47,787 nucleotides of DNA from a virus (Duplodnaviria; Caudoviricetes): positions 1-47,787 of IMG/VR virus record IMGVR_UViG_3300043414_000895. One strand, 5' to 3'. A program made the position numbers and the translations under genes. Positions 102-46,630 of the stretch are shown here, in pieces (the stretch's first letter is position 1; each line of letters begins with the position of its first letter). The notes beneath the pieces are model-generated. The model was not told the origin of the DNA. It did not search any database and was given only the letters and a program-made list of their open reading frames with translations.

Positions 102-127
102 CGCTTACTCCCCGGTGGTGACGGTGG
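1..127 (+). repeat. Exact 127-bp direct repeat, copy 1
   Basis: Identical to 38088-38214. First mismatch at 128 (T) vs 38215 (C); patchy similarity continues beyond. Confidence 0.95.
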
Positions 128-722
128 TGGGCGCCGGCAGGATGCCGTGATGGCATTCGATGGCGCGGGCAATGCGCTGCGATGTCGTTCCATCGCGCCT
201 TATGGCGCTGCCCCGTGATGCCTCGCGCACTATGTCGGCAATCTGCTCATCCGTCAGCGGCGCTGGCTGGGGGTGCGCTGCGGCGTAATGACGTTCTGCA
301 GCACGGAACCCGCTGCGGTAGTCGTTGAAGTCAAACGCCATTGACGCCTCGTTGTCCTCCTGCTGATGCTGAAACATGGCGCCGATCAAAACATCGGGAG
401 CAGGCACCCGCACAGGCGCTGGCTGGGGGTGCGCTGCGCAGTTCTTTCCCTGCCACGCGCCGTGCTTGTAGCCGGCTTTCCAGCCACGCTGATACAGCGG
501 GTGAGCTTCGTCGTGGGCATCAGGCACTGGCTGCGCCAGGGCGGCGCGCAGCGCAATCGCCGCGTTTGAGATGTAGACGCCGCCAGCGTAGGTGCGCTGC
601 ATGGCGTGCTGCTCCAGTGCTGTCAGCGCGGCTTGCGCGGCTTCGCGCAGGGTGGGGGGCTGAGTAGTTGCATGTCCTGCAACAACTGCGGCGGGCAGCG
701 GGGGCAGGGTGGGGGTGGTCAT
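105..722 (-). CDS. Modular early protein with repeated linkers (AALAQPVPDA, 2x AAHPQPAP)
   Basis: ATG at 722 overlaps the methyltransferase stop (ATGA). Linkers are shared with 38192-38635. Confidence 0.8.
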   Translation of the reverse strand: MTTPTLPPLPAAVVAGHATTQPPTLREAAQAALTALEQHAMQRTYAGGVYISNAAIALRAALAQPVPDAHDEAHPLYQRGWKAGYKHGAWQGKNCAAHPQPAPVRVPAPDVLIGAMFQHQQEDNEASMAFDFNDYRSGFRAAERHYAAAHPQPAPLTDEQIADIVREASRGSAIRRDGTTSQRIARAIECHHGILPAPTTVTTGE

Positions 723-8342: not shown

Positions 8343-8786
8343 GTGGTTTCCGTGCATTTGAATTGTCCCGTTGAGCCTGTGAATTGTCCCGATTGCCGGG
8401 ACAAAGGGACAGGGACGGACGGCGGGGACACCCCCGGGACAAAGGGGCTAAAGCCCCTTTGTCCCGGGGTAGGTGGCCCGGGACAAATGTCCCGATTGAA
8501 TGTCCCGGGTGGGGACAAGAGAAAAGCGGCGGGGGGTCTCCGGGAGGTGATGCCGCTGACTGCATCCATCGTGGATGAGGCGCGGCGGGTGTGGGGTGAT
8601 GAGGTGGTGAACCGCTGCATTGCCCGCGGCCAGAACCTGCGCCGGGAGCATGCCCGCATCGCCACCGTGCTGGGTCATGCTGAAGCCGACCGCTGGCTGG
8701 TGCGTGAGCAAGGCAAGGGCGCATGGTTCGGTGCGGTCGAGGGCGGCCGGCAGGTGGGCGTGCTGACGGTGGGGGGCGCGGTATGA
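8343..8786 (+). CDS. Hypothetical protein (true start probably later, near 8550)
   Basis: 3' half looks protein-like and its stop overlaps the next ATG; 5' half overlaps the iterons. Confidence 0.5.
   Translation: MVSVHLNCPVEPVNCPDCRDKGTGTDGGDTPGTKGLKPLCPGVGGPGQMSRLNVPGGDKRKAAGGLREVMPLTASIVDEARRVWGDEVVNRCIARGQNLRREHARIATVLGHAEADRWLVREQGKGAWFGAVEGGRQVGVLTVGGAV
8361..8517. repeat. Putative replication origin: GGGACA/TGTCCC iterons and 17-bp inverted repeat
   Basis: 11 copies of the hexamer in both orientations; CCCCGGGACAAAGGGGC-TAAA-GCCCCTTTGTCCCGGGG at 8432-8469. Confidence 0.7.
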
Positions 8787-9731: not shown

Positions 9732-10247
9732 ATGGTGAACGGTGAAGGTTCCCAGGTGAATGCTCCCTCGCAGGCGGCCATCGGGCGGGCGCTGGGACTG
9801 TCGCCGGCCGCCATCACCAAGCTCAAGGGGCAGGGCATGCCGGTCGACAGCGTGGAGGCCGCCCAGGCGTGGCGGCTGGCGCGGCAGAACATTGCCGCCC
9901 GCAAGCCACTGCCCGCTGATTCGCCGCTGGCTGTGGCGCCGCCGGTGGACCGTGCGCCAGGCCCGCGGGCCGACGATGAAAGCCACGACCAGGCGCGTGC
10001 CCGGCGCGAGCGTGCCGAGGCCGACCTGGCGGAGTTGAAGCTGGCCGAGTTGCGCGGCGAGCTGGTCCGCGCCAGCAACGTGCGCGCCGCCATCGCCCGC
10101 CAGGCCGCTGGGCTGCGTGAGGCGCTGCTGCAGATGCCGTCGCGCCTGGTTCCCATCCTGGCGGCCGACCCCGACCCAGCGCGCATGGACATGGCGCTGC
10201 GCGCCGAGATCGTGGCCGCGCTGCAGCAAATCACCGGCGGCACATGA
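9732..10247 (+). CDS. Terminase small subunit (Nu1-like)
   Basis: N-terminal HTH ending GMP; coiled coil AR.RRE.AEA.LAELKL...RGELV. Confidence 0.85.
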   Translation: MVNGEGSQVNAPSQAAIGRALGLSPAAITKLKGQGMPVDSVEAAQAWRLARQNIAARKPLPADSPLAVAPPVDRAPGPRADDESHDQARARRERAEADLAELKLAELRGELVRASNVRAAIARQAAGLREALLQMPSRLVPILAADPDPARMDMALRAEIVAALQQITGGT

Positions 10248-10549
10248 TGGACCTGCAGAACATCAACGACATCGGCGTGGCCCACTTCACCCGAGCCAAC
10301 AAGAAAGCCAAGCCGCCAGTGCACCTGCCGGCTGGTCCCGGTGTCTATCTGCTGCAGGATGAGCGTGGCGGCATCCTGTACGTGGGTATGAGTTCCGACA
10401 TTGCGCGGCGTGTCAGGCAGCACTGGTATCCGCACAGCGCGGTGTCGTTCTACAGCTGCGATGAGTCTGCCGCCCGCTGGCTGGAAAAGCGCCTGATCGG
10501 CATCCATCACCCCCCGTTCAACACCAAGGGCGTGGGGCGGGCGAGCTGA
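10244..10549 (+). CDS. Small GIY-YIG nuclease
   Basis: GVY...LYVGMS, R...H, E..LI....P.FN. Confidence 0.85.
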   Translation: MMDLQNINDIGVAHFTRANKKAKPPVHLPAGPGVYLLQDERGGILYVGMSSDIARRVRQHWYPHSAVSFYSCDESAARWLEKRLIGIHHPPFNTKGVGRAS

Positions 10550-17092: not shown

Positions 17093-18427
17093 ATGATCAA
17101 TCTGGCATCTACCAGCGACAAGCTCTACGCCATCACCACTGCAGCGGGTGATGTTGAAGTCCACGCATCGTGGGTGGACCTCAACATCACCACGGTGACG
17201 CCTGGGCGCACGAACACTGCCAGCATCACCACGGCCACCAGCACCGACATCGTTGCCGCGCCTGCATCCAGCACCGTGCGCAACGTGAAGTTTTTGGCGA
17301 TCTTCAACTCAACCGCGGCCATCACCAACACCGTCACCGTGTATCACACGGACGGCACAAACCCGGTCGAACTGGCGCGGATGCTGCTGGGGCCTGGCGA
17401 GTCGGCGCAATACGTCGAGGGCGCGGGCTGGGAGAGGTTGAACAGCGCGGGCGCCCCAGTCAATGCGCTGGTGACCAGTGATGTGGACATTCAAACTTTT
17501 ACCGCTGCTGGCACATGGACTAAGCCCACGAATTTCACGCCAAAGCTGACCCTGGTTCGCATCTGGGGCGGCGGCGGCGGTGGTGGTGCTGGCGCATCGC
17601 TTGCTACTGCGATCATTGCAAAAGGCGGAGCGGGTGGCGGTGGTGGGGTCATGGCCGAGGGCAACTTTGCCGCTTCTGATCTGGCCTCCACCGTGTCTGT
17701 GACTATCGGCAGCGGCGGCACAGCGGGTGCGCCCGGCGCCGCAGGCGCTGCGGGCGGCGTGGGTGGCGTTGGACAGAGCTCGACCTTTGGCACTCACTTG
17801 ACCGCATTCGGCGGCGGTGGTGGCGCCGGTGGCGCCATTTCTGCAGCCGCGTCTGGAGGAGGAGGAGGAGGCGGCAGGGGTGGTGCCGGAACAGCCGGTG
17901 GCGCGTCAGGTGGCGCTGGCGGGTTTCCAACAGCCGCCACGAACGGGTCGGGCGGGCAGGGCGTCACGGGTAGCGCCGCTGGCGCCGTGACATCCACAAA
18001 CGCAGAGTACGGCGGGGCTGGCGGCGGCGGGTCGGCAAACACACCTGCCAGCAGCCTGGGCGGCTCGTCGCTGTTTGGCGGCGGCGGCGGTGGATCGGGC
18101 GGGCACCACAATGCCACCCCGGCAGTCGTGGCCGGCGCTGCTGGCGGCGCTTCTGGCTCCTACACCGGAGGCGGCGGCGGTGCTGTCGGCACAGACGGCG
18201 CCGCGCCGACTGCCGGCTCTGCTGGCGCAGACGGCAACACCGGGCGCGGCGGTGCTGGCGGTGGTGGCGGCGGCACAACTGTGACCGCATCAACATCGGG
18301 CGCGGCTGGCGGCAACGGTGGGCGCGGTGGCGGCGGCGGCGGTGGCGGCGGCGTTGGCATGAACCCGGGTCTGGGTGGCGCTGGTGGCGCTGGTGGAGCG
18401 GGCTACTGCGTCGTCTACACATGGTGA
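17093..18427 (+). CDS. Glycine-rich fibre/adhesin-like protein
   Basis: FT..GTWTKP, then many GGGGG blocks, ending GYCVVYTW. Confidence 0.8.
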   Translation: MINLASTSDKLYAITTAAGDVEVHASWVDLNITTVTPGRTNTASITTATSTDIVAAPASSTVRNVKFLAIFNSTAAITNTVTVYHTDGTNPVELARMLLGPGESAQYVEGAGWERLNSAGAPVNALVTSDVDIQTFTAAGTWTKPTNFTPKLTLVRIWGGGGGGGAGASLATAIIAKGGAGGGGGVMAEGNFAASDLASTVSVTIGSGGTAGAPGAAGAAGGVGGVGQSSTFGTHLTAFGGGGGAGGAISAAASGGGGGGGRGGAGTAGGASGGAGGFPTAATNGSGGQGVTGSAAGAVTSTNAEYGGAGGGGSANTPASSLGGSSLFGGGGGGSGGHHNATPAVVAGAAGGASGSYTGGGGGAVGTDGAAPTAGSAGADGNTGRGGAGGGGGGTTVTASTSGAAGGNGGRGGGGGGGGGVGMNPGLGGAGGAGGAGYCVVYTW

Positions 18428-23405: not shown

Positions 23406-25450
23406 CCAGCCAAGCCCGCATCACCGTCACCGCTGAAGACCGCGCCAGCCGTGTGCTGCAGCAGGTGCGCGGCCAGCTGGCCAGCACCAGCGCATCCGCC
23501 GGCCAGCTGGCCGCCAGCGCGGGGCTGATCGGCCCCGCCTTTGCCACGCTGGCCAGCGCGGCCGGCCTGGTGGGTTTTGTCAAAGGTGTGGCCGATGCGG
23601 TGGACGCGCTCAACGATGTGGCCGACGCCACCGGCGCCAGCATCGAGAACCTCAGCGCGCTGGAGCGTGTGGCCAGGCTCAATGGCGGCACGCTCGGGGA
23701 TGTGTCTGGCGTGCTGGTCAAGTTCAACGCCGCGCTGGCCGCCGCGGGCAACCCCGCCAGCGATGCAGCTGGCGTGTTCAAGGCGCTGGGCCTGTCGGCC
23801 AAAGAGTTGCAGCAGATCGACCCCGCGGTGGCGCTGCAGCGCACCGCTGTGGCGCTGGCCGGGTTTGCGGACGACGGCAACAAGGCGCGCATCACGCAAG
23901 AACTGTTTGGCAAAAGCATCAAAGATGCCGCGCCGCTCCTCAAGGATCTGGCCGAGGCGGGCAAGCTCAACGCTTCGGTGACGCGCGAGCAGGCCGAGCA
24001 AGCCGAGCGGTTCAACAAATCCCTGTACGCCCTGCAGACCACCGCCGCCGACGTGGGCCGCAACCTGGTGCTGGGCCTGGGTGGCGCGCTGGCTGAACTG
24101 GTCGAGCGCTACAAGGTGGCCCAGCAGGTGTTCGGCGGCATCGGCGGCATCGTGTCGGCCGGGCTGAAAGAAAAGCTCAACTTTGCCGACCCCACCGAGG
24201 GTCTGCGCGCCTACAACGCGCAGCTGGTGGTGCTGGACGAGCGCATCCGCAAGGCCAGCGACGGCACTGACGGGTTCAACAAGCGATTCAGCGGCCCACG
24301 CGTGGAGGCGCTGCAGAAAGAGCGCGCCGAAATCGCCCGGGTGGCCGACTACTACCGCAACCTGCTGAACCTGGGCAGCGCCGGCCAGGGCCGCGGCAAC
24401 GGCAGCGCGGCGCTGCCGTCGCTGCCAGCGGTCAGTAAGCCGACCACGCCCGCCAAAGAAGAGATCGACCGCAGCACCGAGGCGCTGGGCCAGTACATCG
24501 CCAAGCTGTACAAGGAGGCTGAGGCCGTCACCGCCGTCACCGAGGTGCAGCGCGCGGCCAACGCGTTGCGGGAGGCTGGCGCCAAGGGTCAGCTGCCGGC
24601 GGTGAGAGAACTGGTCACCCGGCTGGCCCAAGAGGCTGACGCCCGCGCTGAAGCTGCATTCTTCGCTGATGTGACCGCCCGCGCCACCGAGCGTGAGGCG
24701 CAGGCCATGAATGCGCTGGACGGCCAGCTGGATGGGTTTGCAGGCCGCACGGCTGACGCGCTGAAGCAGGCGCAGACCGCCAGGCTAGAGGCGCGGCTGG
24801 CGGCGGGTGAGCAGTTCACCGACGCCGAGCTGGAGCGCATCGTCAAGAACATCGGCGGCATCAAGGACGCGGCCCAAGAGACATTCGACGCCAGCAACAA
24901 GGCGCTGGAGCGCTTCGCCAGCAACGTGCAGGACGCGCTGGGCACCACCATCGAGGCCAGTTTGCGCGGCGACTTCGACAACATCGGCAAGCTGTGGAGC
25001 AACCTGCTGCTCAAGATGGCCAGCGAGGCGTTGGCCGCTGACCTGGCCAGCGCGCTGTTCGGCAACCTGGCCGCCAAGCCCGGCGCCGCGGTGGCCGGCG
25101 GCGGGTCGGGCCTGTTCGGCCAACTGTTCTCCAGCCTGTTCAGCTTTGGCATCGGCCGAGCCGCAGGCGGCACGGTGCAGCCCTGGAGCATGCAGCGGGT
25201 CAATGAGTCTGGCCCGGAGCTGTTCACCAGCGGTGGGCAGGACTGGCTGCTGGCAGGCTCACGTGGCGGCACCGTCACGCCCAACGGCGCGCTGGGTGGT
25301 GGCGGCACCATCCAGGTGGTGCAGCACATCACCGTGGGCTCGCAGGTCAGCCGCAACGATGTGATGGCCGCCATGCAGGTGGCCAAGATCCAGACGGTGC
25401 GCGCCGTGGCCGACGCCCGCCGCCGCACCTATGCCGAGGGCGCAGCATGA
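23402..25450 (+). CDS. Tail tape measure protein
   Basis: I.VTAEDRAS start, Ala-rich helical body, RAAGG.V and VNE.GPELF C-terminal motifs. Confidence 0.92.
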   Translation: MTSQARITVTAEDRASRVLQQVRGQLASTSASAGQLAASAGLIGPAFATLASAAGLVGFVKGVADAVDALNDVADATGASIENLSALERVARLNGGTLGDVSGVLVKFNAALAAAGNPASDAAGVFKALGLSAKELQQIDPAVALQRTAVALAGFADDGNKARITQELFGKSIKDAAPLLKDLAEAGKLNASVTREQAEQAERFNKSLYALQTTAADVGRNLVLGLGGALAELVERYKVAQQVFGGIGGIVSAGLKEKLNFADPTEGLRAYNAQLVVLDERIRKASDGTDGFNKRFSGPRVEALQKERAEIARVADYYRNLLNLGSAGQGRGNGSAALPSLPAVSKPTTPAKEEIDRSTEALGQYIAKLYKEAEAVTAVTEVQRAANALREAGAKGQLPAVRELVTRLAQEADARAEAAFFADVTARATEREAQAMNALDGQLDGFAGRTADALKQAQTARLEARLAAGEQFTDAELERIVKNIGGIKDAAQETFDASNKALERFASNVQDALGTTIEASLRGDFDNIGKLWSNLLLKMASEALAADLASALFGNLAAKPGAAVAGGGSGLFGQLFSSLFSFGIGRAAGGTVQPWSMQRVNESGPELFTSGGQDWLLAGSRGGTVTPNGALGGGGTIQVVQHITVGSQVSRNDVMAAMQVAKIQTVRAVADARRRTYAEGAA

Positions 25451-27061: not shown

Positions 27062-30000
27062 GTGCCCACCATTCTGGCGGCTGAACTGGTGCTGATCGGC
27101 CTGGGCCTGGAGTCTGCCGTTGGCGCCTTCCTGGTCACAAACGCCACACTCATTGCCAACGTGGCCGTGTTCTCGGCCACCGTGGCCGGCAGCGCATCCA
27201 TGCAGCGCCGCGCCAAGGCCAAGGCGAGGGCGGCCTATAACGCATCGCTCAAAGACCGCGAAATCACCTTCCGCAGCGCCGTGGCGCCGCGCCGTGTGAT
27301 CTACGGCCGCGACCGCGTGGGCGGCGTGCTGGTGTTCGCGCAGTCCACCGGCACCAAGAAGGAGTTCCTGCACGCCGTCATCGCCCTGGCCGCGCATGAA
27401 TGCGACGCCATCGAAGAGGTCTGGTTTGGCGACGAGCTGCTGCCCACGCCTGACGCCAGCGGCTGGATCACATCGGGCGCGTTCGGCACCGACATCGTGA
27501 ATCGGGCCACTCACTACGCCACGGTGTCTGGCGGCGGCACCATCACGCTGCCGCAGGCGGCTAGCAAGGTGACCGACATCAGCCGGGCTGCCAGCGAAAG
27601 TGTGGACGGCGCTAGTTACGGCGGCACGCACACGCCGGGGTCGGTCACCATCTCGGGCCTGCCCGCTGGCGAATCGCTGACGGTCGGCTATGAATACGGC
27701 ACCCCCGCGCAAAAAGTGCGCATCCGCAAGTTCCTGGGCGCGGCCGGCCAGACGGCCGACGCCGACCTGGTGGCCGCCAGCGGCGGAAAGTGGACCACGG
27801 CGCACAAGGGCACCGGCATCTGCTACCTGTACGTGATGCTGAAGTTCGACCCGGAGATGTTCGCCAACTTCGACCTGTCGCGCATCATGTGCACGGTGCG
27901 CGGCAAGAAGGTGGCCGACCCGCGCACCGGCACCACCGTCTGGACCGACAACGCCGCGCTGATCACAGCCGACTGGCTGAAGGACACCACCTATGGCATG
28001 CGCGCCAGTGCGGGCGAGGTGCCATCGGCCGAGGTGATTGCCGCGGCCAACATCTGCGACGAGACCGTGACGCTGAATGTGGGCGGTACAACACAGAAGC
28101 GCTACATCTACAACGGCAGCTTCGGCGCCGACCAGGCCCCGCGTGATGTGCTGGAGGATCTGCTCAGCAGCATGGCTGGGCACTGCGTGTGGACGCAGGG
28201 CCGCTGGCTGCTGCGCCCAGGCGCCTATCGCACGCCCGGCGCTGGCGCCGAGATCACCGAGGACCACCTGGCCGATGGCGGCGTGACCGTCACGCCCAAG
28301 GTGAGCCGCAGCGCGCTGTTCAATGCGGTACGTGTCACGTACCGCGACCCCAGCCAGGGCTGGGCACAGGTGCAGGCGCCGCTGGTGACAAACGCCACCT
28401 ACGTGACGCAGGACGGCGGCGTGCAGGTGGTGCGCGACATCACCATGCCCGGCGCCATGGACGCCCTGCGCGCCCAGCGCCTGGGCAAGATCGAGCTGGA
28501 GCGGGGCCGCCAGGCGGTGACGGTGCAGGCCACCACCAACCTGCGCGCCTACGACTACGCCCCCACCGACACCACCCTGCTGATCCTGCCGCGCTACGGC
28601 TGGGGCAGCGGCAAGGTGTTCGAGGTGATCGACCGCACCTGGTCGCCCGAGGGCACGCTGCGCTACACCTGGCGCGAGACCGCATCGGCGGTGTACGCCT
28701 GGAACTACGGCGAGGCCACCGCGGTGGACCCGGCGCCCGACACGGACCTGCCGAGCCCCTACACCCGGCCCGCGGCGCTGGCCGCGCCTGCGCTGGCAAC
28801 CGGCACCGCGCAGCTGTGGCGGCAGGATGACGGCACCATCATCAGCCGCGCCTATGCAAGCTGGGCGGCCAGCGTTGACCAGTTCGTCATCGAAGCCGGC
28901 CGCATCGAGCTGGAGTGGTCCATTGGCGGCGCAGAGGACTGGCAAAGCCTGGCCGCCATGCCCGGCTCGGCAACCGAGACATGGATTGCCCCGGTGCCCG
29001 ATGGCCAGGTGCTGGTGGTGCGCATCCGTCAAGTCAACCCGCTGGGCGTGCGCAGCAACTGGTCCTATGCCAGCGTGGTGGTGGTGGGCAAGACAGCCGC
29101 ACCGGCCAATGTGGCGGGGTTTGCGGCCACCGTCAGCAAGGGGCGGGTGCGCTGGGCCTGGACGGCATCGACCGAGGCCGATTACCAGCGCACTGAGATC
29201 CGCAGCACCGACAGCGGCTGGGGCGGCAGCGGTGCGCTGTGGTCAGGCCGGGTGTCCGAATGGCCCGAGACGGTGACGGCCACCGGCACACTGACGCGCT
29301 ATGTGCGCCACGTCGACACCAGTGGCAACCGGTCAGCAGCCACCGTGTCGGCCAGCATCACCATCACCGCACCCGACCTGGTGCAAGACGGCGCTAACGC
29401 TGTGGTGGCCGTGCTGACGAATGAGGCGCACACGGTGCAGACGGCGGCCGATGGTAGCGGCGGCAGCCTGGTCGGGGCTGGCGGCACGTTTATGGTTTTT
29501 GACGGTCTGACCGATGTGACCGGCACGGCCGGTGTGACGTACTACATCGACGGAATCAGCGGTGGCCTGTCGGTCAGCATTGCGTCGACAGGCGTGTACA
29601 CGGTCACTTCATTCACGGCTGACAGCGGCTATTGCGACCTGCGCGCAGACTATGGCGATGTGTTCCTGCTGAAGCGCTACAGCATTGCCAAGAGCAAAAC
29701 CGGGGCGGCCGGCGCATCAGCCAAGGCACTGTTTCTCACGGCCACGTCGCAAGTTTTCCAGGTGCCGTATGTTGGCGCGGCCACGCCCAGCAGCATCACA
29801 TTCACCGCCGCGGGGCAGAACCTGGGCGGCAGCCCCGCCATCAGCGTGATCAGCGGCACCGCAACGCTGGGCGGGTCGGGCGGGCTGCGCACGCTGGCCT
29901 ACAGCGACATGGGCACCGACGCGGTGACCGTGCAAGTGGCCCAGGACGGGCTGACCGACATCATCACCGTGGTGAAGGTGCGCGAGGGCGCACCAGGCGG

Positions 30001-31714
30001 CCCGGGCGGCCCCGGTGTCAACGCAGTGGTCGGCATCCTGTCCAACGAAGCCCACACCGTGCAAACGGCCGCCGATGGCAGCGGCGGCAGCTACGGCGCG
30101 GCGGGCGGCATCTTCATGGTCTTTGATGGGTTGACCGACAAGACCGGCACAGTAGCGGTGACCTACAGCGTGGCCAGCAGCTCGGGCGTGAGCATCAGCA
30201 TTGCATCGTCCGGCATCTACACCGTCACCGACACCAGCGCCGACACCGCAACCGCCACGCTGCGCGCGGCATACGCCAGCGTGACCATCGACAAGGTGTA
30301 CAGCATCAGCCGCAGCAAGGCGGGGTCTGCCGGCTCCAACGGCTCCAACGGCTCCAACGGCACAAATGGCACCAACGGGACGAATGGCGCCGATGGGCTC
30401 AGCACGGCCCTGGTGTACATCTACCAGCGCGCCACCTCGGCCCCAGCAGTGCCCAGCGCCACCGCGACCTTCACGTTTTCCGGCGCGGCCATCACCGGGT
30501 TGAACAACGGCTGGCAGGCAACCCCTCCAGGAGGGGCTGACCCGCTGTATGTGTCGGTGGCGACGGCCAGCAGCAGCGGCGCCACCGACAGCATCACCAG
30601 CGGCGAATGGGCAAGCCCGGTGGTGCTGGCGGCCAACGGCGCGAACGGCTCAAACGGGTCCAACGGTAGCAATGGCAGCAGCGGTGTTGACGGACTGAAT
30701 GCCGCCACGGTGTACCTGTTCCAACGCACCGGCAGCAGCACGCCGCCTGCGTTGCCATCGGCCACGGCGACATACACGTTTACAACCGGCATTGCATCGG
30801 GCGTCGACAACGGCTGGACGCAGACACTACCGACCACTGGCGGGGCCTATCGGTGGGTGACCACGGCATCTGCGCTGAGCAGCTCAGCCACCGACACGCT
30901 GGGCACCGGTGAGTGGGCCGCGGCCAGCCTGCTGGCGCAAGACGGCGCCAACGGCACCAATGGCACCAATGGCACCAACGGTGCGGCCGGCACCCCTGCA
31001 GTCAGCAGCAGCCTGACGCGCCTGGTGGCCAACTTCACCGCCGATTCCACCGGGCTAATCGACTCCAGCCAGTCATTTGCCACGACCATGCAAGTGCTTA
31101 TCGGCGCGACCGACGACACCGGCAGCTGGTCGATCAGCCGCGCCAGCAGCGACGGCAGCATCGCCACGTCGATCAGCGGCGCCACGGTCACCATCACCGA
31201 CATCGGCACCGGCCTGGAGACCGGCACCGTCACGGTCACGGCCACGCGCAGCGGCTACCCGACGCAGAACATCGTGGTGCAGGTGGGCAAGATCAAGCGC
31301 GCCGTGCCAAGTGCCTACCCGGTTTCGTTTGCGGCGGACGTGACCAACGGCATCACCATCAATACCACGGCGAATGCCTACGTGCGGCTCAAAACCGACG
31401 GCACCGTCGAAACTTCGTTGGACAACAGCAGCTGGACGGCGGCGGGCAACTGGTACTCGCCAACGACCAGTGGCATCGGCAGCAGCTACCGCGTCTCCAA
31501 CACCGTGGTGGGCGATGCGCTGCTGGCGGGCAACTCAGCCAGCTACCAGTCGCTGTCGACCGAGAAGAAATACCAGCTGAGTCAATCGCCGGGCGGGCCT
31601 AGCACTTATCTAGAAAAGCGGGCGCAACTGACCATCCGCATCGCTGCCAGCGGCAATGACGCCCCGCTGGCCGTCGGCTACGCCGCGATGTACGTCTACG
31701 TGGACCGGACATGA
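27062..31714 (+). CDS. Central tail fibre / host-specificity protein (gpJ-like) with duplicated domains and collagen-like spacers
   Basis: R.VIYGR.RVGG, VRGKKV.DPR and FN3-like domains, then repeated modules and G-X-N triplets. Confidence 0.9.
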   Translation: MPTILAAELVLIGLGLESAVGAFLVTNATLIANVAVFSATVAGSASMQRRAKAKARAAYNASLKDREITFRSAVAPRRVIYGRDRVGGVLVFAQSTGTKKEFLHAVIALAAHECDAIEEVWFGDELLPTPDASGWITSGAFGTDIVNRATHYATVSGGGTITLPQAASKVTDISRAASESVDGASYGGTHTPGSVTISGLPAGESLTVGYEYGTPAQKVRIRKFLGAAGQTADADLVAASGGKWTTAHKGTGICYLYVMLKFDPEMFANFDLSRIMCTVRGKKVADPRTGTTVWTDNAALITADWLKDTTYGMRASAGEVPSAEVIAAANICDETVTLNVGGTTQKRYIYNGSFGADQAPRDVLEDLLSSMAGHCVWTQGRWLLRPGAYRTPGAGAEITEDHLADGGVTVTPKVSRSALFNAVRVTYRDPSQGWAQVQAPLVTNATYVTQDGGVQVVRDITMPGAMDALRAQRLGKIELERGRQAVTVQATTNLRAYDYAPTDTTLLILPRYGWGSGKVFEVIDRTWSPEGTLRYTWRETASAVYAWNYGEATAVDPAPDTDLPSPYTRPAALAAPALATGTAQLWRQDDGTIISRAYASWAASVDQFVIEAGRIELEWSIGGAEDWQSLAAMPGSATETWIAPVPDGQVLVVRIRQVNPLGVRSNWSYASVVVVGKTAAPANVAGFAATVSKGRVRWAWTASTEADYQRTEIRSTDSGWGGSGALWSGRVSEWPETVTATGTLTRYVRHVDTSGNRSAATVSASITITAPDLVQDGANAVVAVLTNEAHTVQTAADGSGGSLVGAGGTFMVFDGLTDVTGTAGVTYYIDGISGGLSVSIASTGVYTVTSFTADSGYCDLRADYGDVFLLKRYSIAKSKTGAAGASAKALFLTATSQVFQVPYVGAATPSSITFTAAGQNLGGSPAISVISGTATLGGSGGLRTLAYSDMGTDAVTVQVAQDGLTDIITVVKVREGAPGGPGGPGVNAVVGILSNEAHTVQTAADGSGGSYGAAGGIFMVFDGLTDKTGTVAVTYSVASSSGVSISIASSGIYTVTDTSADTATATLRAAYASVTIDKVYSISRSKAGSAGSNGSNGSNGTNGTNGTNGADGLSTALVYIYQRATSAPAVPSATATFTFSGAAITGLNNGWQATPPGGADPLYVSVATASSSGATDSITSGEWASPVVLAANGANGSNGSNGSNGSSGVDGLNAATVYLFQRTGSSTPPALPSATATYTFTTGIASGVDNGWTQTLPTTGGAYRWVTTASALSSSATDTLGTGEWAAASLLAQDGANGTNGTNGTNGAAGTPAVSSSLTRLVANFTADSTGLIDSSQSFATTMQVLIGATDDTGSWSISRASSDGSIATSISGATVTITDIGTGLETGTVTVTATRSGYPTQNIVVQVGKIKRAVPSAYPVSFAADVTNGITINTTANAYVRLKTDGTVETSLDNSSWTAAGNWYSPTTSGIGSSYRVSNTVVGDALLAGNSASYQSLSTEKKYQLSQSPGGPSTYLEKRAQLTIRIAASGNDAPLAVGYAAMYVYVDRT

Positions 31715-32895: not shown

Positions 32896-34055
32896 TTGAT
32901 CCAAAGCTCTACCAGTTCGCCACGGTGCGCCAGCTTGAAAAGTTGGAGGCCATCGAAAAGCACGGCAGCGCACGCAAGGCAGCGAAGGCAATGGGGGTGC
33001 ACCGCAACGCCATTGACTGCGCGGTGGCGGCGGTCAGGTCCAAGGCCGCCATGGCGGGCTACTCCCCAGACCACGACCTGACGCGTCCGGTTGCGCCGGG
33101 CCAAAAGCTGCGCGGCGCTTCGACGCTTTACCGCAGGGGCGAGCCCGAGCCTGTTCTGCAGTGGGTGAAGTCCTCGGCCGATGACGCCCAGCGCGAGCAG
33201 ATCATCCGCGACATCATCGCCAGCCTCATGGACGATGTGCCGCGCAAAGAGCCGGTGCTGTTTGACGGCCCTACAGAGGCCAGCCTGTGCAACGTCTACA
33301 CGCTGACCGATTCGCACGTAGGCGCCTTGTGCTGGCACCGTGAGGGTGGTGCCGATTGGGATCTGAAGATCGCAGAGGCCACGCTGGTCGGTTGTTTCGA
33401 GCGGATGATCCAGGCATCGCCTGCAGCAGATCTATGCGTGGTAGCGCAGCTGGGCGATTTTCTGCACCAGGATTCCATGCTGCCGGTGACGCCCACCAGC
33501 GGGCATGTGCTGGACGCAGACGGACGATTCAGCAAGGTGGTGGCGGTCGCCATTCGCGTACTGCGAACGGTGGTGAACCTGGCGCTGGCCAAGCACCGGC
33601 GCGTGGTGGTGCTGATGGCCGAGGGCAACCACGACACCGCATCGTCGGTGTGGCTGCGCGCGCTGTTTGGGGCGCTCTACGAGCGCGAGCCCCGCGTGCA
33701 GGTCATCGACTCGCCGCTGCCGTACTACGTGCACCAGCACGGCGCCACCATGATCGGCTGGCACCACGGCCACCTTCGCAAGCCGGCAGAACTGCCGTTG
33801 TTGTTCGCTGCGCAATTCCCGACAGTGTGGGGCAGCACGACGAAGCGCTACGTGCACTGCGGCCACCGGCACCACGTGGAAGAAAAGGAACACTCAGGCG
33901 TGCACGTGATCCAGCACCCAACCCTGGCCGCGCGTGATGCCTACGCAGCCCGGGGCGGGTGGATTGCTGACCGCACGGTGACTGCGGTGACCTACCACGA
34001 CCGATTCGGGCGCTATTCCACCGCGACGGTGTGCCCCGAGATGCTGGGCGCGTGA
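32892..34055 (+). CDS. HTH plus calcineurin-like metallophosphoesterase
   Basis: DSHVG, LGDFLH.D, GNHD, HHGH and GHRHH motifs; N-terminal HTH. Confidence 0.88.
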   Translation: MIDPKLYQFATVRQLEKLEAIEKHGSARKAAKAMGVHRNAIDCAVAAVRSKAAMAGYSPDHDLTRPVAPGQKLRGASTLYRRGEPEPVLQWVKSSADDAQREQIIRDIIASLMDDVPRKEPVLFDGPTEASLCNVYTLTDSHVGALCWHREGGADWDLKIAEATLVGCFERMIQASPAADLCVVAQLGDFLHQDSMLPVTPTSGHVLDADGRFSKVVAVAIRVLRTVVNLALAKHRRVVVLMAEGNHDTASSVWLRALFGALYEREPRVQVIDSPLPYYVHQHGATMIGWHHGHLRKPAELPLLFAAQFPTVWGSTTKRYVHCGHRHHVEEKEHSGVHVIQHPTLAARDAYAARGGWIADRTVTAVTYHDRFGRYSTATVCPEMLGA

Positions 34056-34285
34056 TGCTGCAGTCCGCCGCCCACGTTCCGCACATGCTGTGCGGCGACG
34101 TTGCCGGCCTGGACGGCACCCGCGCGGCGGTGGATCTGCCGGCCGATCTGCTGGACCGTTGCACCGTGTGGGTGATTGGGCCGGCGATGGCGGGCGTGCA
34201 TCTCGACCTGGCGGGCATCGAGGCGCTGCGGGGGCTGCTGGCTGATGCTGCTGGCAGGATGCGGGCGGCGCAGTTTTCGGCGTAA
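34055..34285 (+). CDS. Hypothetical protein
   Basis: TGATG coupling to the upstream gene. Confidence 0.5.
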   Translation: MLQSAAHVPHMLCGDVAGLDGTRAAVDLPADLLDRCTVWVIGPAMAGVHLDLAGIEALRGLLADAAGRMRAAQFSA

Positions 34286-34472
34286 CTTTCGCCACCGAAG
34301 CTCAATCTAGCCCGGTCAGACGCTGGGCCATCATGGGGGTGTGTTCCCTGCTAGGCGACCCGTTCACCTATGAGAACCCACGCTGAAGGTTACGCCAGGA
34401 CGCCCGACTGCACCCGGCTGCGCCCCGTTTGCTGGCGTAGCATTGGCGTAACTTCAGCAGACGGCGTAACTT
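34267..34472. other. attP: arm-type repeats flanking a putative core
   Basis: GGCGTAACTT at 34279, 34445 and 34463; variants at 34267, 34434 and inverted at 34387-34396; candidate core CCATCATGGGGG at 34328-34339. Confidence 0.75.
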
Positions 34473-34476
34473 TTCC

Positions 34477-35745
34477 ATGTTCGATGCTCGGGCGGCCAAA
34501 GCCTTGCCCCCTGGTGACCACCTCATTGTGCCGGGCGCGCCAGGGCTGCGCCTGGTGGCCACGGTATCGACGCGCACCTGGGTCTACAGGTACAAGTCAC
34601 CGACCGACGGCAAGATGCGCCAGGTGCGGCTTGGGCACTGGCCGGCGCTGGGCCTGCCGGGCGCGCTGGCCGCGTGGGAAAAGCTACGCCAGGCGCGCGA
34701 GGCCGGCGCCGACCCGGCGGCCGACAAGCGCCAGCAGCGCACCGAGGCCGCTGCCCAGGCGCAGGCCGAGGCGTACACCGTGCGCCGGGCCTGCGACCAC
34801 TGGCTGGCAGGCTACCAGGGCACGGTGGCGCCCAAAACCTACAACGAGGCCGAGCGCCTGGTGCGCGTCGAGCTTGGCGACCTGGCCGACAAGCCCGCGG
34901 CCGAGGTCACGCGCGGAGATGCGTTCAGCCTGATCGACGGCAAGCGGCACAAGCCGGTGGTGGCCGGCGCGCTGCGTCAGATCCTGGGGGCCGCGTGGGA
35001 TCGCGCGCTGGATGCCGGCGAACTACCCGACAGTGCGCCGAACTGGTGGAGGTTGATCCTGCGCGGCAAGCTGCCCAGCAAGGGCAAGGTGGTCGAGGGC
35101 AAGAACATCGGCGCCGTCAAGCGCGTGCTGTCCGATGCCGAGGTGGGCCAGTTGCTGCGCTGGATGCCGAACCACAGCCGCGACATGGCCGACCTGCTGA
35201 CTCTGTACTTGTGGACCTGCTGCCGCGGCGCCGAACTGGTGGCCATGGAGCGGGCCGAGATCACAGCGGAGCCAGATGGTCTGTGGTGGACGGTGCCGCG
35301 GGCCAAGCTCAAGATGCGGCGCAACCCGTTGACGGTGGATCTGCGCGTGCCGCTGGTGGGCCGGGCCGAGGCCATCGTGCGCCGCCGGCTGGATGCTGCG
35401 CCAGGCGTGTGGCTGTTCGCATCGCGCGGCAAGTCGGGGCACATCGAGCAGAAGGCCATCGGCGTTGCGGTGTGGTCGCACACCCCGCGGTGTGAATCAC
35501 ATGCCGACTGGATTAGGCCGCGCCTGGCAATGGCTGAATGGGCGCCGCACGATCTGCGGCGCACTGGGCGCACGATGCTGGCCGCGCTGGGATGCCCGGC
35601 CGAGGTGGCCGAGGCCATCCTGGGGCACATGCAGCCTGGCATCGTGAGCGTCTACGACCGACACCAGTACAACGCCGAGCGGCGGGTGTGGATCACGCGC
35701 TTGGCGCAGCGGCTGGAGCAGCTTGCCGCCCAGGCCCCGGCCTGA
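34477..35745 (+). CDS. int: Tyrosine integrase with arm-binding domain (P4-like)
   Basis: GLRL...W.YRY arm domain; catalytic R (TCCRGAE), HDLRRT, LGH and VY. Confidence 0.96.
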   Translation: MFDARAAKALPPGDHLIVPGAPGLRLVATVSTRTWVYRYKSPTDGKMRQVRLGHWPALGLPGALAAWEKLRQAREAGADPAADKRQQRTEAAAQAQAEAYTVRRACDHWLAGYQGTVAPKTYNEAERLVRVELGDLADKPAAEVTRGDAFSLIDGKRHKPVVAGALRQILGAAWDRALDAGELPDSAPNWWRLILRGKLPSKGKVVEGKNIGAVKRVLSDAEVGQLLRWMPNHSRDMADLLTLYLWTCCRGAELVAMERAEITAEPDGLWWTVPRAKLKMRRNPLTVDLRVPLVGRAEAIVRRRLDAAPGVWLFASRGKSGHIEQKAIGVAVWSHTPRCESHADWIRPRLAMAEWAPHDLRRTGRTMLAALGCPAEVAEAILGHMQPGIVSVYDRHQYNAERRVWITRLAQRLEQLAAQAPA

Positions 35746-35944
35746 TCGTTGAAACCGGCAGCGCCCGCAGGTGCGCGTCCAGTTCCTCGCGCAGCCACAC
35801 CACGCGCCGGGCGCCGATCTGGCGCGGCTGCGGGAATAGCCCGGCCTGCGCCTGCGATTCCATCGTGGTCACGCTCAGCCCGACATAGGCGGCGGCGGTT
35901 TCGCGGTCCAGTGCGGCAGGCTGGATGATGATGGTGGGGATCAC
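35693..35944 (-). CDS. AlpA-family excisionase
   Basis: AAAYVGLS...G.FPQPRQIG.RRV.W; convergent with int. Confidence 0.85.
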   Translation of the reverse strand: MIPTIIIQPAALDRETAAAYVGLSVTTMESQAQAGLFPQPRQIGARRVVWLREELDAHLRALPVSTIRPGPGRQAAPAAAPSA

Positions 35945-36744
35945 TGCGCGCCCCCAGGTGCTGCCGGTGCGGCGTCAAGCATTGCGGCGTAGGCTTCACC
36001 GTATATAGATTCTTCGATCTTGAGGGATTCGGTAGCCACGTTCTTGTAGACGGCGCTGCCGTTGGCGAAGATCACAGCAGCCTTGCACATCGCTTCGGTT
36101 GCTTCGGACGGCACCAGCCGCCACCCTGCTGGGGCTGGCTGCGGGGTGGCAATGGCGCGGTCGATGACATCGGCCAGATGGTCGTCAGTCCTGCCGGGGT
36201 GCTTGCCGTGCTTTGCCAGCGCATGATGAACTCGGCTCCAGTCTTGGCGGTCAAGGTCGCGGGCTGCATTCCATGCGCGATAGGCAAAGGTTTTTTCGTA
36301 GTCCCCGCCACCAGCCCGGCAGAACTGTCCGTGGTCCGACCACCAAGCCTCAAAGTCGGCAGTGCCTACACCTTGAGGCTCCCCGCTGGGCACGCTGGGA
36401 GCGGCATCCCACCGCGCCAGCGCGTCGGCGCCGTATACATGCAGCATGTCGCGGATGGCCGGCGTTGCAATCTCGCCGCGCAGCATTGCGGCATGCACTG
36501 CCACCGGGTCGCGCAGCTTCGCGGCAATGTCGGGCTCCCCGCTGGGCACGCTGGGAGCGGCAAGGGCGCGTTCGTTCAGCAGTTGCGCCGCCATCTTCTG
36601 CGCCCGGTGCGCCGTGTTCATTGACACAGCAAGGTCGGCGCGCAGGCGGGTGATTTCCTCAATGGCATCGCGGATGTGCGGGCGCCAGTCGTCCACCGGG
36701 TCGAGTTCGGCCCATATTTCGGCTAGTCGGTCTAGGTTGGTCAT
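35941..36744 (-). CDS. Modular early protein with internal repeat AAPSVPSGEP x2
   Basis: ATG at 36744 overlaps the upstream stop; 30-bp exact repeat at 36377 and 36533; GW.LVP.E.T..M module. Confidence 0.8.
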   Translation of the reverse strand: MTNLDRLAEIWAELDPVDDWRPHIRDAIEEITRLRADLAVSMNTAHRAQKMAAQLLNERALAAPSVPSGEPDIAAKLRDPVAVHAAMLRGEIATPAIRDMLHVYGADALARWDAAPSVPSGEPQGVGTADFEAWWSDHGQFCRAGGGDYEKTFAYRAWNAARDLDRQDWSRVHHALAKHGKHPGRTDDHLADVIDRAIATPQPAPAGWRLVPSEATEAMCKAAVIFANGSAVYKNVATESLKIEESIYGEAYAAMLDAAPAAPGGAQ

Positions 36745-37262
36745 TGCCCCTCCCCGGTGGTGGGCGCCGCAACCCGGCTCAATGCCCAGGCCCACAGCGA
36801 CCCGCCTGCAACCTTCGCGGCAAACTGAAGCGCGGCAATCTGCGCCACGACTTCCAGCGGCTTGGGTGCAGGCGAGAGCAGCCAGAAAGCCAGCGCAGAG
36901 AACACCACGGTATCAACCACCGCGCCGACCACGTTACTGCCCAAGCTGCGCCGCAGCCATGAGCCGGTCAGCCGGGTGAATGCCTGCCAGTCCACCAGCG
37001 CAGCCAGCGTGAAAGCCGCAGCCGATGCGATGACGATGTGCTGCGCAGAAGGGTTCAGCGCATAGGTCAGCGCACCCGATGCACCGATCAGCGCAAGCAT
37101 CTGCCAAGCGCGCAGCCGAAGGTGTAGCCAGTCGCGCAGCGCCAAGTCCAGGCCGATCAAAATGAATGCATTGATGGGGCTAACCCACGGCCCGAAGTGG
37201 GCGATGCTCAGGTTTGCCACGGTCATCGCGGCGGCATAGATCAAGATTGCAGCGGTCAGCAT
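36741..37262 (-). CDS. VUT/YhhQ-family (queuosine precursor) transporter-like membrane protein
   Basis: AN, G....LRD, IAS..AF....D, R...SN.VG..VDT.VF..LAF and Q...K motifs; highly hydrophobic. Confidence 0.82.
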   Translation of the reverse strand: MLTAAILIYAAAMTVANLSIAHFGPWVSPINAFILIGLDLALRDWLHLRLRAWQMLALIGASGALTYALNPSAQHIVIASAAAFTLAALVDWQAFTRLTGSWLRRSLGSNVVGAVVDTVVFSALAFWLLSPAPKPLEVVAQIAALQFAAKVAGGSLWAWALSRVAAPTTGEGQ

Positions 37263-37933
37263 AGAGCCTCTTGAATTGGCCGCTCTGTCCACAGAGTCGG
37301 CGGGTTGATGGAATCGATGCGTTGCGCCATGCATTCGGCGCAGCCGGTGCCGTCTTTGAAGTTGCGGCCCACGTTGGTTGAATCGGCGCTTGCCAGCGGC
37401 CACGGCCCGGCAGCTTGCCCAAGCATCCGCAGCCCATGCAGCCACGGCACGCGGCCGAACTGCTGCACCAGCGCGTTGAAGGTCTCATCCATGCGGCCAC
37501 ACCATGCGGCGCTGCCAACCTGCCAAAACTCGCCGCTGCTGCCGATGCACACACGGGGCCAGTCGTTGCACAGGTCAAACAGGTACTCAAGCGGCAGGCC
37601 CAGGTGCCACACGGGCGCCCCGTATTGCTTGCGGTGCGGCCATGTCGCCACCATTGCGCGCTGCTGCTCTACGGTGCCGCCAATCTCGTCAGGCACCACA
37701 GCCCAATGCGGGTGGCCCAGGCGCGGCTCGATCCACGCATAGAACCCCGGCATGTCAAAGGCAATGCCGCGCGTCTTGACGCTGAAGGCTCCGTTGTCCA
37801 ACATCACGCTTTGCCCAATGCGCAGGCACGTTGCCAGGTCTTGCGGGGCCGCGTAGCTCACGCAAAACATGCGCCCGGCCATGCGCTCAAGCTGGGCGCG
37901 TGGCGTAATCGGGGTGCCGTGGTAGTGCAGCAC
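37256..37933 (-). CDS. TGT/DpdA-like base-exchange transglycosylase
   Basis: MLDNGAFS, PDEIGG, PVWH, HGL and ASADST motifs in TGT-fold order. Confidence 0.7.
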   Translation of the reverse strand: MLHYHGTPITPRAQLERMAGRMFCVSYAAPQDLATCLRIGQSVMLDNGAFSVKTRGIAFDMPGFYAWIEPRLGHPHWAVVPDEIGGTVEQQRAMVATWPHRKQYGAPVWHLGLPLEYLFDLCNDWPRVCIGSSGEFWQVGSAAWCGRMDETFNALVQQFGRVPWLHGLRMLGQAAGPWPLASADSTNVGRNFKDGTGCAECMAQRIDSINPPTLWTERPIQEALC

Positions 37934-37936
37934 GGC

Positions 37937-38188
37937 TCACCGCTCCTTGGTGTCGGTGGTGGGCGCCGGCCGCTCATGGCTGAACGGAGTGAACTCCCAT
38001 GTACCCATGTCGCCCGCGTCAGCGTTGTGCATTGCATGGCATTCCGGGTGCATCTTCACGGTGCCAACTTCCCCGCCGTCATAGCAGCGCCAGCGCATGT
38101 ACTGTTCGCCCGGCGCCACTGATTCGCCGCAACTCTGACAAACGTGCGGCTTGCGGGCCGTCAGCGTTTCGGGCGTTGTGCAGTGCAT
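37937..38188 (-). CDS. Small Zn-binding phage protein
   Basis: ARK.H.C..CGE...PGE.Y ... H..C. Confidence 0.75.
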   Translation of the reverse strand: MHCTTPETLTARKPHVCQSCGESVAPGEQYMRWRCYDGGEVGTVKMHPECHAMHNADAGDMGTWEFTPFSHERPAPTTDTKER

Positions 38189-38214
38189 CGCTTACTCCCC
38201 GGTGGTGACGGTGG
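38088..38214 (+). repeat. Exact 127-bp direct repeat, copy 2
   Basis: Identical to 1-127. Confidence 0.95.
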
Positions 38215-38635
38215 CGGGCGCCGGCACGATGCCGTGTGCCTGCTCAATGGCGCGGGCATACGCACGGTAGGCTGCATACAGGGCACCAAGCCCGCGCCCC
38301 CAATGCTCGGCGGTGATCTGGTCAATCTGCGTATCCGTCAGCGGCGCTGGCTGGGGGTGCGCTGCTGCATGGAACCGCTGCACGTGCTCGGGGCCGTCTC
38401 CGGTGCTGATGTCCACCCACGCACCAAGCCCACCATTGCCGCCTGGGTAGGCGACAACCTGCGGCCAGTGGATGGCATCAGGCACTGGCTGCGCCAGGGC
38501 GGCGCGCGCTTCTTCCAGCAGATCGTTGACCGCGTCCAGCACGGTCATGTCGCGGTCCTCAAACGGTTTGCCGTCGCAAAAGTCAAACAGGCTGTCGCGG
38601 ATAGCCTGCAGCAACTCAAGAGGGATAGTGATCAC
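38192..38635 (-). CDS. Modular early protein, counterpart of 105-722
   Basis: GTG at 38635 overlaps the VRR-NUC stop; same linkers, different intervening segments. Confidence 0.8.
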   Translation of the reverse strand: MITIPLELLQAIRDSLFDFCDGKPFEDRDMTVLDAVNDLLEEARAALAQPVPDAIHWPQVVAYPGGNGGLGAWVDISTGDGPEHVQRFHAAAHPQPAPLTDTQIDQITAEHWGRGLGALYAAYRAYARAIEQAHGIVPAPATVTTGE

Positions 38636-38916
38636 TTGCTCTCCTTCAGTGTTAGTAGAAACGCCGCCACATCGTCGGGGCCGTACAGGCAAACGTACTG
38701 CTGGCCCAAGCGCTGCATGTCGGCGGCGAACACCTTCTGCAGCGGCGACAGCACGCCCTTATCTGTCTTCAGTTCAACAAAGATTACCCGCCCGCCTGGC
38801 AGCAGCACCAGCCGGTCAGCCACGCCGCGGTGCGCAGGCGATGTGAACTTGTAGGCAACGCCGCCCAGCGCGGCCACGCCCTTGACCAGCTTCTTCTCAA
38901 CGTCGCGCTCAAGCAT
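38632..38916 (-). CDS. VRR-NUC domain nuclease
   Basis: MLE..VE..L, KF.SP..RGV.DR, FVELK...G.LS.LQ. Confidence 0.92.
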   Translation of the reverse strand: MLERDVEKKLVKGVAALGGVAYKFTSPAHRGVADRLVLLPGGRVIFVELKTDKGVLSPLQKVFAADMQRLGQQYVCLYGPDDVAAFLLTLKESK

Positions 38917-39033
38917 GGCCGCCAAAAATTTCAAGTTTGTCCATGTCCGAGACTTTACAGCGCAAAAAAGATTTGCACAAGCTCTTTGTTTTGCCGCTAC
39001 ACTGGATGCCCCAACCACCGAAAGGACTCGAAA

Positions 39034-39198
39034 GTGCAGATCATCCTCAACACTGAAGACATCAAGCAGATCTTGCAAGACTACGTGCGGCATAACTTTG
39101 GGCCGCTCATGGACTTGACGGATCTCAACACCTACACCTTCGCACCGACCGCCACCTTTACTCGCGTCGAGGAGGCCGAAGACGATGGCTCACTCTAA
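39034..39198 (+). CDS. Small hypothetical protein
   Basis: GTG start after AAGGA; M.I.L..EDIKQ pattern. Confidence 0.55.
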   Translation: MQIILNTEDIKQILQDYVRHNFGPLMDLTDLNTYTFAPTATFTRVEEAEDDGSL

Positions 39199-39433
39199 CA
39201 ACGTCACGCCGCGCACTAGCGAAGGCCTTTGTGAGGCGCTGTTTCAAGAGTTTGATCTTTTGCGCGCCGGCAAGAGCGACAACCACCGCGCTTCTGCGGT
39301 TGCCAAGCTGGCAGTGCAAATTATCAACACTAAGCGCCTTGAGATCGACGCTGCCATGTTCTACAAAAGCGGCCTGCGTTTTGAGCCGCTGACACTTGCC
39401 AAAGAGGGGATCAAAATTGGCACTGGCAAATAA
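39185..39433 (+). CDS. Hypothetical protein
   Basis: GGAGG upstream; L.EALF.E.D.LR.G motif. Confidence 0.65.
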   Translation: MAHSNNVTPRTSEGLCEALFQEFDLLRAGKSDNHRASAVAKLAVQIINTKRLEIDAAMFYKSGLRFEPLTLAKEGIKIGTGK

Positions 39434-39719
39434 TCCCGTTGCGGCGGCAAAAATTGAAGCGCTCTACCGCGAAATACTTGACACAGTCGCGCGCGAACAA
39501 GCGCATATGACCGCTGTTGGGTGCGTAATTTGCGGCAGCAAAGACCGCGTGCGCCCAATCTTTGACCATGAAAACGCGCCTTGTATGTGCAGGTATCACA
39601 GAGGTGGGTGGGGGGTGACCTTTAGTCGCTTTCGCTATGCCGGCCAAGATAAAGAACTGCATTTCGCAAAGTGGCTGGCAAAGAACTTAATCAAACAGGC
39701 AAACCATGCAGCACAGTAA
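39417..39719 (+). CDS. Hypothetical Zn-finger protein
   Basis: CVICG...C..H; TTG start assumed. Confidence 0.5.
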   Translation: MALANNPVAAAKIEALYREILDTVAREQAHMTAVGCVICGSKDRVRPIFDHENAPCMCRYHRGGWGVTFSRFRYAGQDKELHFAKWLAKNLIKQANHAAQ

Positions 39720-40836: not shown

Positions 40837-40848
40837 GGAACTACAGTA

Positions 40849-41493: not shown

Positions 41494-41500
41494 TTGAATT

Positions 41501-46628: not shown

Positions 46629-46630
46629 CC

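Follow-up and report, generated by a model that had tools for sequence, protein, structure and literature searches.

The window analysed here, the whole 47,787-nucleotide stretch of the IMG/VR virus record IMGVR_UViG_3300043414_000895 and an entire contig, contains two early genes on the complementary strand with open reading frames throughout: gene A (205 aa; 105–722), directly downstream of a DNA cytosine methyltransferase gene, and gene B (147 aa; 38192–38635), both of them upstream of the same 83-aa gene. The initial annotation had described the two as built from swappable segments joined by linkers of identical DNA, and the identical blocks were recovered at the positions it had given. 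Linker L1 is exact over 34 bp (516–549 in gene A and 38474–38507 in gene B), and linker L2 (249–282 in gene A) is exact over 33 bp (249–281 and 38333–38365), while an inner copy of L2 within gene A (415–438) matches gene B over 23 bp (415–437) and forms a 24-bp direct repeat with 259–282. These blocks contain rare codons, several of them at 8–22% usage in the long genes of the contig, and for each of the two long blocks, codons would coincide by chance with a probability of about 3 × 10−4 where the peptide is the same; a control stretch of late genes of similar length held no exact repeat longer than 18 bp. Three contigs from the run that is the probable source tile gene A with no mismatch.

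Read in its own direction, gene A is a series of linkers and variable segments, all on the complementary strand. A start linker (692–723; 32 bp exact in the related sequence G002 and 20 bp in G003) is followed by a linker that encodes the first helix of an N-terminal hairpin (636–665; 30 bp exact in G001 and 23 bp in G004) and by a variable insert at residues 39–56 (555–608), the loop of the predicted helical hairpin, which is found in 6 of 136 other proteins, none of which carries another gene A segment. L1, exact over 35 bp in G001, 29 bp in G003 and 19 bp in G002, precedes middle segment 1 (439–515; residues about 70–95), which is held in common with protein L002 and others. Beyond the inner copy of L2 comes a further middle segment (283–414; conserved core at residues 110–145) that occurs in two other proteins in other contexts, and L2 itself is exact over 35 bp in G003 and 28 bp in G001. 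The variable insert of the C-terminal helix pair (171–239; residues 162–184) has eight other carriers and sits at the N-terminus in three of them. The gene closes with a combined C-terminal and gene-junction linker (105–170), in which a Shine-Dalgarno-like run precedes the next start; 15–17 bp of this linker are also present at the ends of two other early genes. In gene B, on the same strand, the segment between the two linkers (38366–38473) is near-identical in three proteins (P0021, P0023 and P0052) with other N- and C-terminal parts, and the C-terminal insert (38258–38323; residues 105–126) has about 20 carriers with 14 different left neighbours. Compared with each other, the two genes have unrelated N-terminal and middle segments and last inserts that are only weakly alike, and gene A exceeds gene B by one segment, all as first described; the near-identical C-terminus is real as well, and its continuation into the next gene and up to the start of the contig had been missed.

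This continuation bears on how the contig is put together. Self-comparison showed that positions 1–127 are identical to 38088–38214 and that 1–149, the contig-end copy of the repeat, matches 38088–38236 at 99%, so that the identity around the C-terminus of gene A extends through the next gene to base 1. Depth was taken from the contigs of a freshwater metagenome that is probably the source run; there, a single 266-bp contig covers 37949–38214 at a depth of 23.1; its neighbours have depths of 12.3 (33392–37978), 10–15.5 (gene A) and 11.5–13.4 (gene B side). A word length of 127 is usual for assemblers. Positions 1–38087 carry a complete set of lambdoid genes in their standard order (methyltransferase, repressor, helicase, terminase, portal, capsid, tail, integrase and excisionase), a complete phage A of 38,087 bp, and 38215–47787 hold a different replication module with a PD-(D/E)XK exonuclease, DNA polymerase, primase and nuclease, one open reading frame of which matches a PHROG endonuclease and presumably encodes a VRR-type nuclease. 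A complete relative of 37,167 bp (G001), 91–98% identical to phage A over most large blocks, has no polymerase arm. Given the 127-bp end overlap, the doubled depth and this relative, the contig appears to be a lasso-shaped assembly join of two phages, lambdoid phage A and a DNA-polymerase-type fragment of phage B, made at the 266-bp stretch common to both (depth 23.1 versus 10–15.5 on the branches), and 38215–47787 should be handled as a genome fragment of its own. Genes A and B are therefore most likely alleles of one slot in two genomes: the blocks that they share stand, while a setting of both genes in one genome most likely does not. The same three observations disfavour two paralogues in one genome; a co-integrate of the two phages is a formal alternative, the second left-hand path being deduced from a contig break.

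Several other features were seen in the contig and its source sample. There is a third contig of greater depth (about 37 in run X1 and 12 in run X2) that matches the end of gene B at 38203–38280 and then diverges, and this is a further allele in the same sample. One member of the capsid cluster comes from an Aquabacterium bin, which gives a hint of the host group. Short repeats lie in the gap before the integrase (34281–34476), which is unbroken in one 4,587-bp contig and is probably an intact attP, so that phage A would have been sampled as free phage DNA. A small nuclease open reading frame between the terminase subunits (10244–10549) has a weak PHROG endonuclease match, and we take it to be GIY-YIG-like. 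In the tail fibre gene (29389–31000), a stretch of 154 bp is present as a diverged duplication and Gly-X-Asn is repeated in tandem units of 9 bp, and self-comparison also gave palindromic stretches of 38–46 bp at 8432–8469, 17147–17191 and 23469–23514. The phage B fragment carries a PAPS-reductase-like gene and a DNA methyltransferase gene (43554–44312 and 46754–47350) beside the polymerase and primase genes, and ends in a low-complexity 9-bp GC-rich repeat (47695–47787).

The early operon of phage A contains a second cassette gene, W2 (267 aa; 35941–36744, complementary strand), which adjoins the excisionase gene. Its linkers, all on the same strand, comprise two copies of a 30-bp exact repeat (36533–36562 and 36377–36406, exact in G004 over 29 and 30 bp, respectively), a linker ahead of the C-terminal segment (36110–36149; 40 bp exact in G003 and 28 bp in G004), a C-terminal linker (35957–35976; 18–20 bp exact in G003 and G004) and a gene-junction linker at the start of W2 (36739–36769; 31 bp exact in G004). 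Three complementary-strand genes lie between gene A and W2 (36741–38188), an 83-aa Cys-rich open reading frame, a queuine tRNA-ribosyltransferase-like gene and a Vut_1 transporter gene, two of which end in the junction linker. They are absent at this place in G004, where the junction linker joins the first cassette gene straight to the second. The same linker thus joins cassette genes in one phage and flanks inserted genes in the other, which argues that the scaffold handles whole genes as well as segments. The queuine tRNA-ribosyltransferase-like gene and the Vut_1 gene are neighbours between junction linkers (36741–37933) and may be a pair for 7-deazaguanine uptake and DNA modification; the early operon contains DNA-modification genes. 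The position of the integrase (plus strand) and excisionase (minus strand) genes (34477–35944) makes the operon the equivalent of the lambda exo-xis region. The internal repeats of gene A and W2 are both spaced by 156 bp, probably by chance. A Shine-Dalgarno-like run is common to the internal W2 linker at 36377–36406 and the gene-junction linker at 36739–36769, and internal linkers may descend from old gene junctions.

Searches of other phages revealed that the linkers recur at the DNA level with different flanking segments. Among viral contigs, exact-DNA searches recovered L2 in three sequences and L1 in two, each with new segments, and a related-locus search gave one locus. When any synonymous codon was allowed, L1 was found in two loci and the C-terminal linker in two family loci among 19, and all four of these family loci use the window's own codons. 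A degenerate scan for L2 in 30 of 64 parts of the viral contigs gave 118 loci, of which 116 were judged unrelated by eye and two were family members; linker scans of metagenomes (two matches) and of genomes (five matches) yielded no family member. Compared at the DNA level with the early operon, G003 and G004 match only at islands of 17–40 bp, whose order is preserved throughout gene A and W2, and G001 retains the linkers and has other inserts. At least six unrelated linker sequences are conserved in this manner.

The conservation of synonymous sites was quantified using a codon-degenerate scan of IMG/VR for the C-terminal motif, which gave 121 loci in 9 of 64 parts (estimated total, 900). The 119 distinct genes were reduced to 95 whose inserts are unrelated, and 65 of these had a locatable upstream linker, a feature that played no part in the scan's selection. 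The codons of this linker are nearly fixed at four positions (35/36, 38/38, 59/65 and 54/65); among 2,080 pairs of genes, 191 share at least 23 bp of the upstream linker and 51 share at least 30 bp, against 0–1 and 0 pairs, respectively, in three codon-resampled null sets, a null that ignores common descent. Codon identity at identical residues was 0.73 for the upstream linker and 0.60 for the downstream motif, relative to 0.49–0.54 in 17 flanking homologue pairs of 30–79% identity and 0.71 in the one pair above 90%. The linkers are therefore over-conserved at synonymous sites, with near-fixed codons and an identity of 0.73 versus about 0.5 in the flanks, and normal synonymous divergence was not seen. 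Within the same pairs, linker and shared segment differ little in the handful of comparisons possible (one segment, for instance, with 3 of 18 synonymous differences). None of 80 linker-sharing pairs has a 100-bp flank match at 90%, nor does any other pair among the 42 loci with long flanks; some flank match was detected in 36 of the 80 and in 88 of 781 other pairs, and this excess of flank similarity indicates that relatedness contributes to linker identity.

The segments between the linkers assort almost freely. A search with gene A gave 47 proteins, gene A included, a 12-sequence profile extended this to 461 proteins, 120 of them listed, and the family comprises 2,683 clusters at 50% identity. 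We clustered 139 proteins without preset motifs and obtained 77 shared segments of 10–81 aa (median, 25) in an automatic catalogue that merges some neighbours and omits one common segment above the carrier limit. The 84 proteins with at least two segments show 79 architectures, and among 213 co-occurring segment pairs, 185 are such that each partner is also found apart, five are always together and none occurs in both orders. Removing the 20 proteins known only from Logan assemblies left 67 architectures in 71 proteins, with 172 of 196 pairs also found apart; the W2 set is less free by this pair measure (34 of 91). The four segments of gene A have 6, 4, 2 and 8 other carriers and those of W2 have 15, 26, 43 and 33 carriers among 119, with zero overlap in both cases. 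Middle segments range from none in one relative (L137) through one in gene B and two in gene A to more in another (P0038), which bears out the expectation of differing segment numbers. Furthermore, 39 stretches, scaffold ones included, are shared between 24 relatives of the first cassette gene and 15 of the second. The proposal thus stands with regard to content, which is non-collinear, and is qualified with regard to order, as no pair was found in both orders: exchange is slot by slot, not free re-ordering.

Segment boundaries and substitution patterns were also compared. Among 346 clean ends of shared stretches, 84% lie no more than three residues from a scaffold column or a Pro/Ala/Gln run versus 40% expected, a test that is partly circular as shared stretches run through conserved linkers; a looser version gave 56% versus 33%. 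In 31 shared-segment pairs, 137 synonymous and 93 non-synonymous differences were counted (pooled dN/dS of 0.16, biased low by seeding from peptide matches), and the shared segments are under purifying selection.

AlphaFold2 modelling of gene A gave an N-terminal helical hairpin (residues 25–63) and a C-terminal helix pair (158–191; pLDDT 83–92), each having its variable insert between the helices, and a middle part that the model leaves without a resolved fold (pTM 0.34). W2 was modelled as small helical units strung together (pTM 0.35), with hinges of low confidence that fall on or close to the linkers. Fold searches of BFVD and PDB gave no match at E = 0.001, and the 47 relatives had no Pfam match above the cut-off; PHROG returned five unnamed families, with six member matches among 110, and the best ESM Atlas feature (score 0.86) is unnamed and is taken as a lead only. 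Gene A and a further protein, P0010, gave no match to cultured phages. Two cultured phages have the same grammar, with repeated linkers of their own near the integrase gene. Pseudomonas phage Fyn8 (L152; 1746–3614) encodes a 622-aa protein of many segments, with repeated linkers of 27–37 bp of which the best pairs are 84–96% identical, and offers a cultured model for testing; in phage Mae-JY02 (L153; 1379–2741), two adjacent genes share a 41-bp linker at 98%, one of them with a DUF1653-like segment below the cut-off. A literature search, covering a minority of subscription journals, found no published description of this family.

From the ordered identical linkers, the near-free assortment and the variable segment number, all of which support the earlier idea of in-frame recombination points, we consider that the variable segments (about 10–80 aa; median, 25) are swapped, added and dropped in frame by homology-dependent crossover within the near-identical DNA linkers, a reading to which we assign a probability of roughly 75%. 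Exchange would take place in cells that contain two phages, or a phage together with a prophage, through host RecA or the annealing protein of a partner phage. No single-strand annealing protein was found among the open reading frames scanned, so that host RecA or the partner would have to act. Minimal pairing lengths are given as 23–27 bp for Red-beta and 31–34 bp for RecA in the part of the source consulted (PMC3945230), and the match of the linker tracts to these lengths favours homology-dependent crossover. Each exchange would copy or select the common linker, such that the linkers become uniform in DNA and the intervening segments remain polymorphic; frame and fold would survive as the linkers are whole codons for outer hairpin helices or Pro/Ala/Gln hinges, and the direct repeats within gene A and W2 would permit the loss or gain of one segment. 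Deletion alleles between these internal repeats did not appear in contigs of five runs, material in which absence cannot be established, and exchange is accordingly deduced rather than observed directly.

The closest competing explanation accepts the same crossover points and differs only in selection for variety: the linkers would be conserved for protein structure and homogenised by general phage recombination, and shuffled products would be tolerated with no diversification system behind them. The coincidence of linkers with predicted helices or hinges fits this, as do the more frequent shared DNA elsewhere in linker-sharing pairs and the common exchange of small gene fragments by temperate phages through relaxed homologous recombination, as portrayed in the parts of the literature consulted (PMC3945230 and PMC2327257). 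Protein constraint alone, however, cannot fix synonymous codons, some of them rare, and the segments are under purifying selection, so we give this by-product explanation a real but distinctly less than even chance. That the linker DNA is instead a cis-acting signal (a ribosome-binding site, translational coupling, antitermination or a protein-binding site), with recombination secondary, seems unlikely. The Shine-Dalgarno-like run lies just before the next start in the gene-junction linker and recurs inside W2, but L1 and L2 are without it, at least six unrelated sequences are each conserved, and no promoter or terminator pattern falls on the linkers; the window has 21 copies of the E. coli Chi octamer, a number probably due to codon use, and none of them is in a linker.

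A dedicated site-specific recombinase moving cassettes in the manner of an integron or shufflon is very improbable despite the integrase at the end of the operon, given that this is an ordinary phage enzyme paired with an excisionase, that the linkers are several unrelated sequences whose identical tracts span 17–53 bp with differing end points, and that the phage B fragment has no such enzyme. We regard it as equally remote that the segment combinations are assembly chimeras formed at identical linkers. Contigs built from 31-letter words do break exactly at L1 and L2, and the present contig itself is apparently mis-joined at a longer repeat; the 23–53-bp linkers, however, are shorter than the reads and than the 127-bp overlap, the pattern persists without the Logan-only proteins, isolated phages have the same grammar, and chimeras cannot yield unrelated inserts between identical linkers.

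With crossover at the linkers as the preferred reading, the products would be early accessory proteins that act on host functions, some of them against restriction or other defences. We place such a host-directed or anti-defence role at slightly under even odds, as it draws solely on fusions to Lar, DUF551 and NADAR in relatives of the neighbouring gene and on no segment of gene A or B. No segment of either gene matches a family of known function. Fusions of W2 segments to Lar (two proteins) and to DUF551 (two proteins) score above the cut-off, and a NADAR fusion occurs in one protein known only from a Logan assembly; DUF551 is present in these relatives and not in gene A, gene B or W2. In G004, a Lar domain above the Pfam cut-off and a DUF551-like end below it lie between the same exact linkers, and a cultured Sphingopyxis phage has a W2-like segment fused to a Lar-like domain. 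Lar is an alleviator of Type I restriction, and NADAR proteins of phages are able to counteract DarTG. More tentatively, and with doubt outweighing expectation, freshwater temperate phages might share a community-wide, recombinase-free cassette library, in which a fixed set of translated linkers is kept by selection for exchange and from which unrelated phages draw anti-host or anti-defence mini-domains of 20–50 aa, a very large pool of inhibitors that are each separately selectable.

Taken together, lake phages likely exchange segments at these connectors, a possible purpose being variation in proteins that target the host. It is an old proposal that short conserved tracts direct phage mosaicism; the present data provide sequence-level support for it, in this instance within reading frames and for units as small as mini-domains, and make it testable by recoding one linker. 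A large unannotated family is ordered into a finite grammar, the segments of which can be screened singly against defence systems. A caution also follows for phage assemblies, which can be mis-joined at linkers and shared repeats of this kind.

Among known systems, the Ea22 mosaics of the lambda/Stx exo-xis region (PMC10834534, consulted in part) occupy the same place, in the early leftward operon before xis and int, and consist of exchangeable blocks; DUF551, there one C-terminal variant, is here fused to W2 segments in relatives. By description, the present segments are set apart from those of Ea22 in being smaller, more numerous, variable at every slot and framed by DNA-identical linkers. 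No Ead/Ea22 Pfam signature was found in 54 proteins, and the gene A model has short hairpins in place of the long central coiled coil. Domain movement (DoMo) in the Type I specificity genes of Helicobacter pylori also places domains between DNA repeats, where recombination alters their content and number and moves them between loci (PMC3077401, in the parts consulted). The traits in common are direct repeats within a gene (24 bp in gene A and 30 bp in W2), variable domain number and change of position or locus. DoMo as portrayed there belongs to a single bacterial species and uses two repeats around homologous DNA-recognition domains whose function is known (PMC3077401), whereas here there are at least six linker types and unrelated mini-segments in diverse phages, and Pfam and PHROG gave no match to restriction-modification target recognition domains. 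The gp38 adhesins of T-even phages have hypervariable segments between conserved motifs, as the cassette family does, and swap them between phages (PMC3157838, seen in excerpt). In that account, gp38 is a virion receptor-binding protein with a fixed segment number; the present genes are early, of variable segment number and supplied from an open pool, have no match to a tail family and lie in an operon far from the tail genes, in contrast to the tail-fibre locus and glycine-rich motifs of gp38.

Diversity-generating retroelements have a reverse transcriptase with template and variable repeats that differ at adenines; no reverse transcriptase was detected among 59 open reading frames scanned, and the segments are unrelated rather than adenine variants. 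Integrons and shufflons combine a dedicated recombinase with one type of recombination site, and here no recombinase but the phage integrase was found and the linkers are several unrelated sequences. Lambdoid linker or boundary sequences, attributed to Clark et al. 2001, are reportedly short conserved tracts that drive modular shuffling. The PeSL cassettes of T4-type phages are likewise short conserved DNA tracts driving the shuffling of small early genes (PMC2839356, in the portion considered). Both kinds of tract are intergenic or at gene borders, and the junction linker resembles them in having the same role for whole genes, whereas most linkers here are inside reading frames and translated. 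General domain mosaicism of phage proteins (PMC10684548), expected to be more frequent among accessory proteins of unknown function, and polyvalent proteins (PMC5512222) likewise produce multi-domain proteins by shuffling; in the portions of these two sources considered, the domains are larger and mostly annotated, and neither fixed linker DNA nor the present family is described. The system works like the shuffling of Ea22, DoMo, gp38 and PeSL, and by a defining feature it stands apart from each of these protein families.
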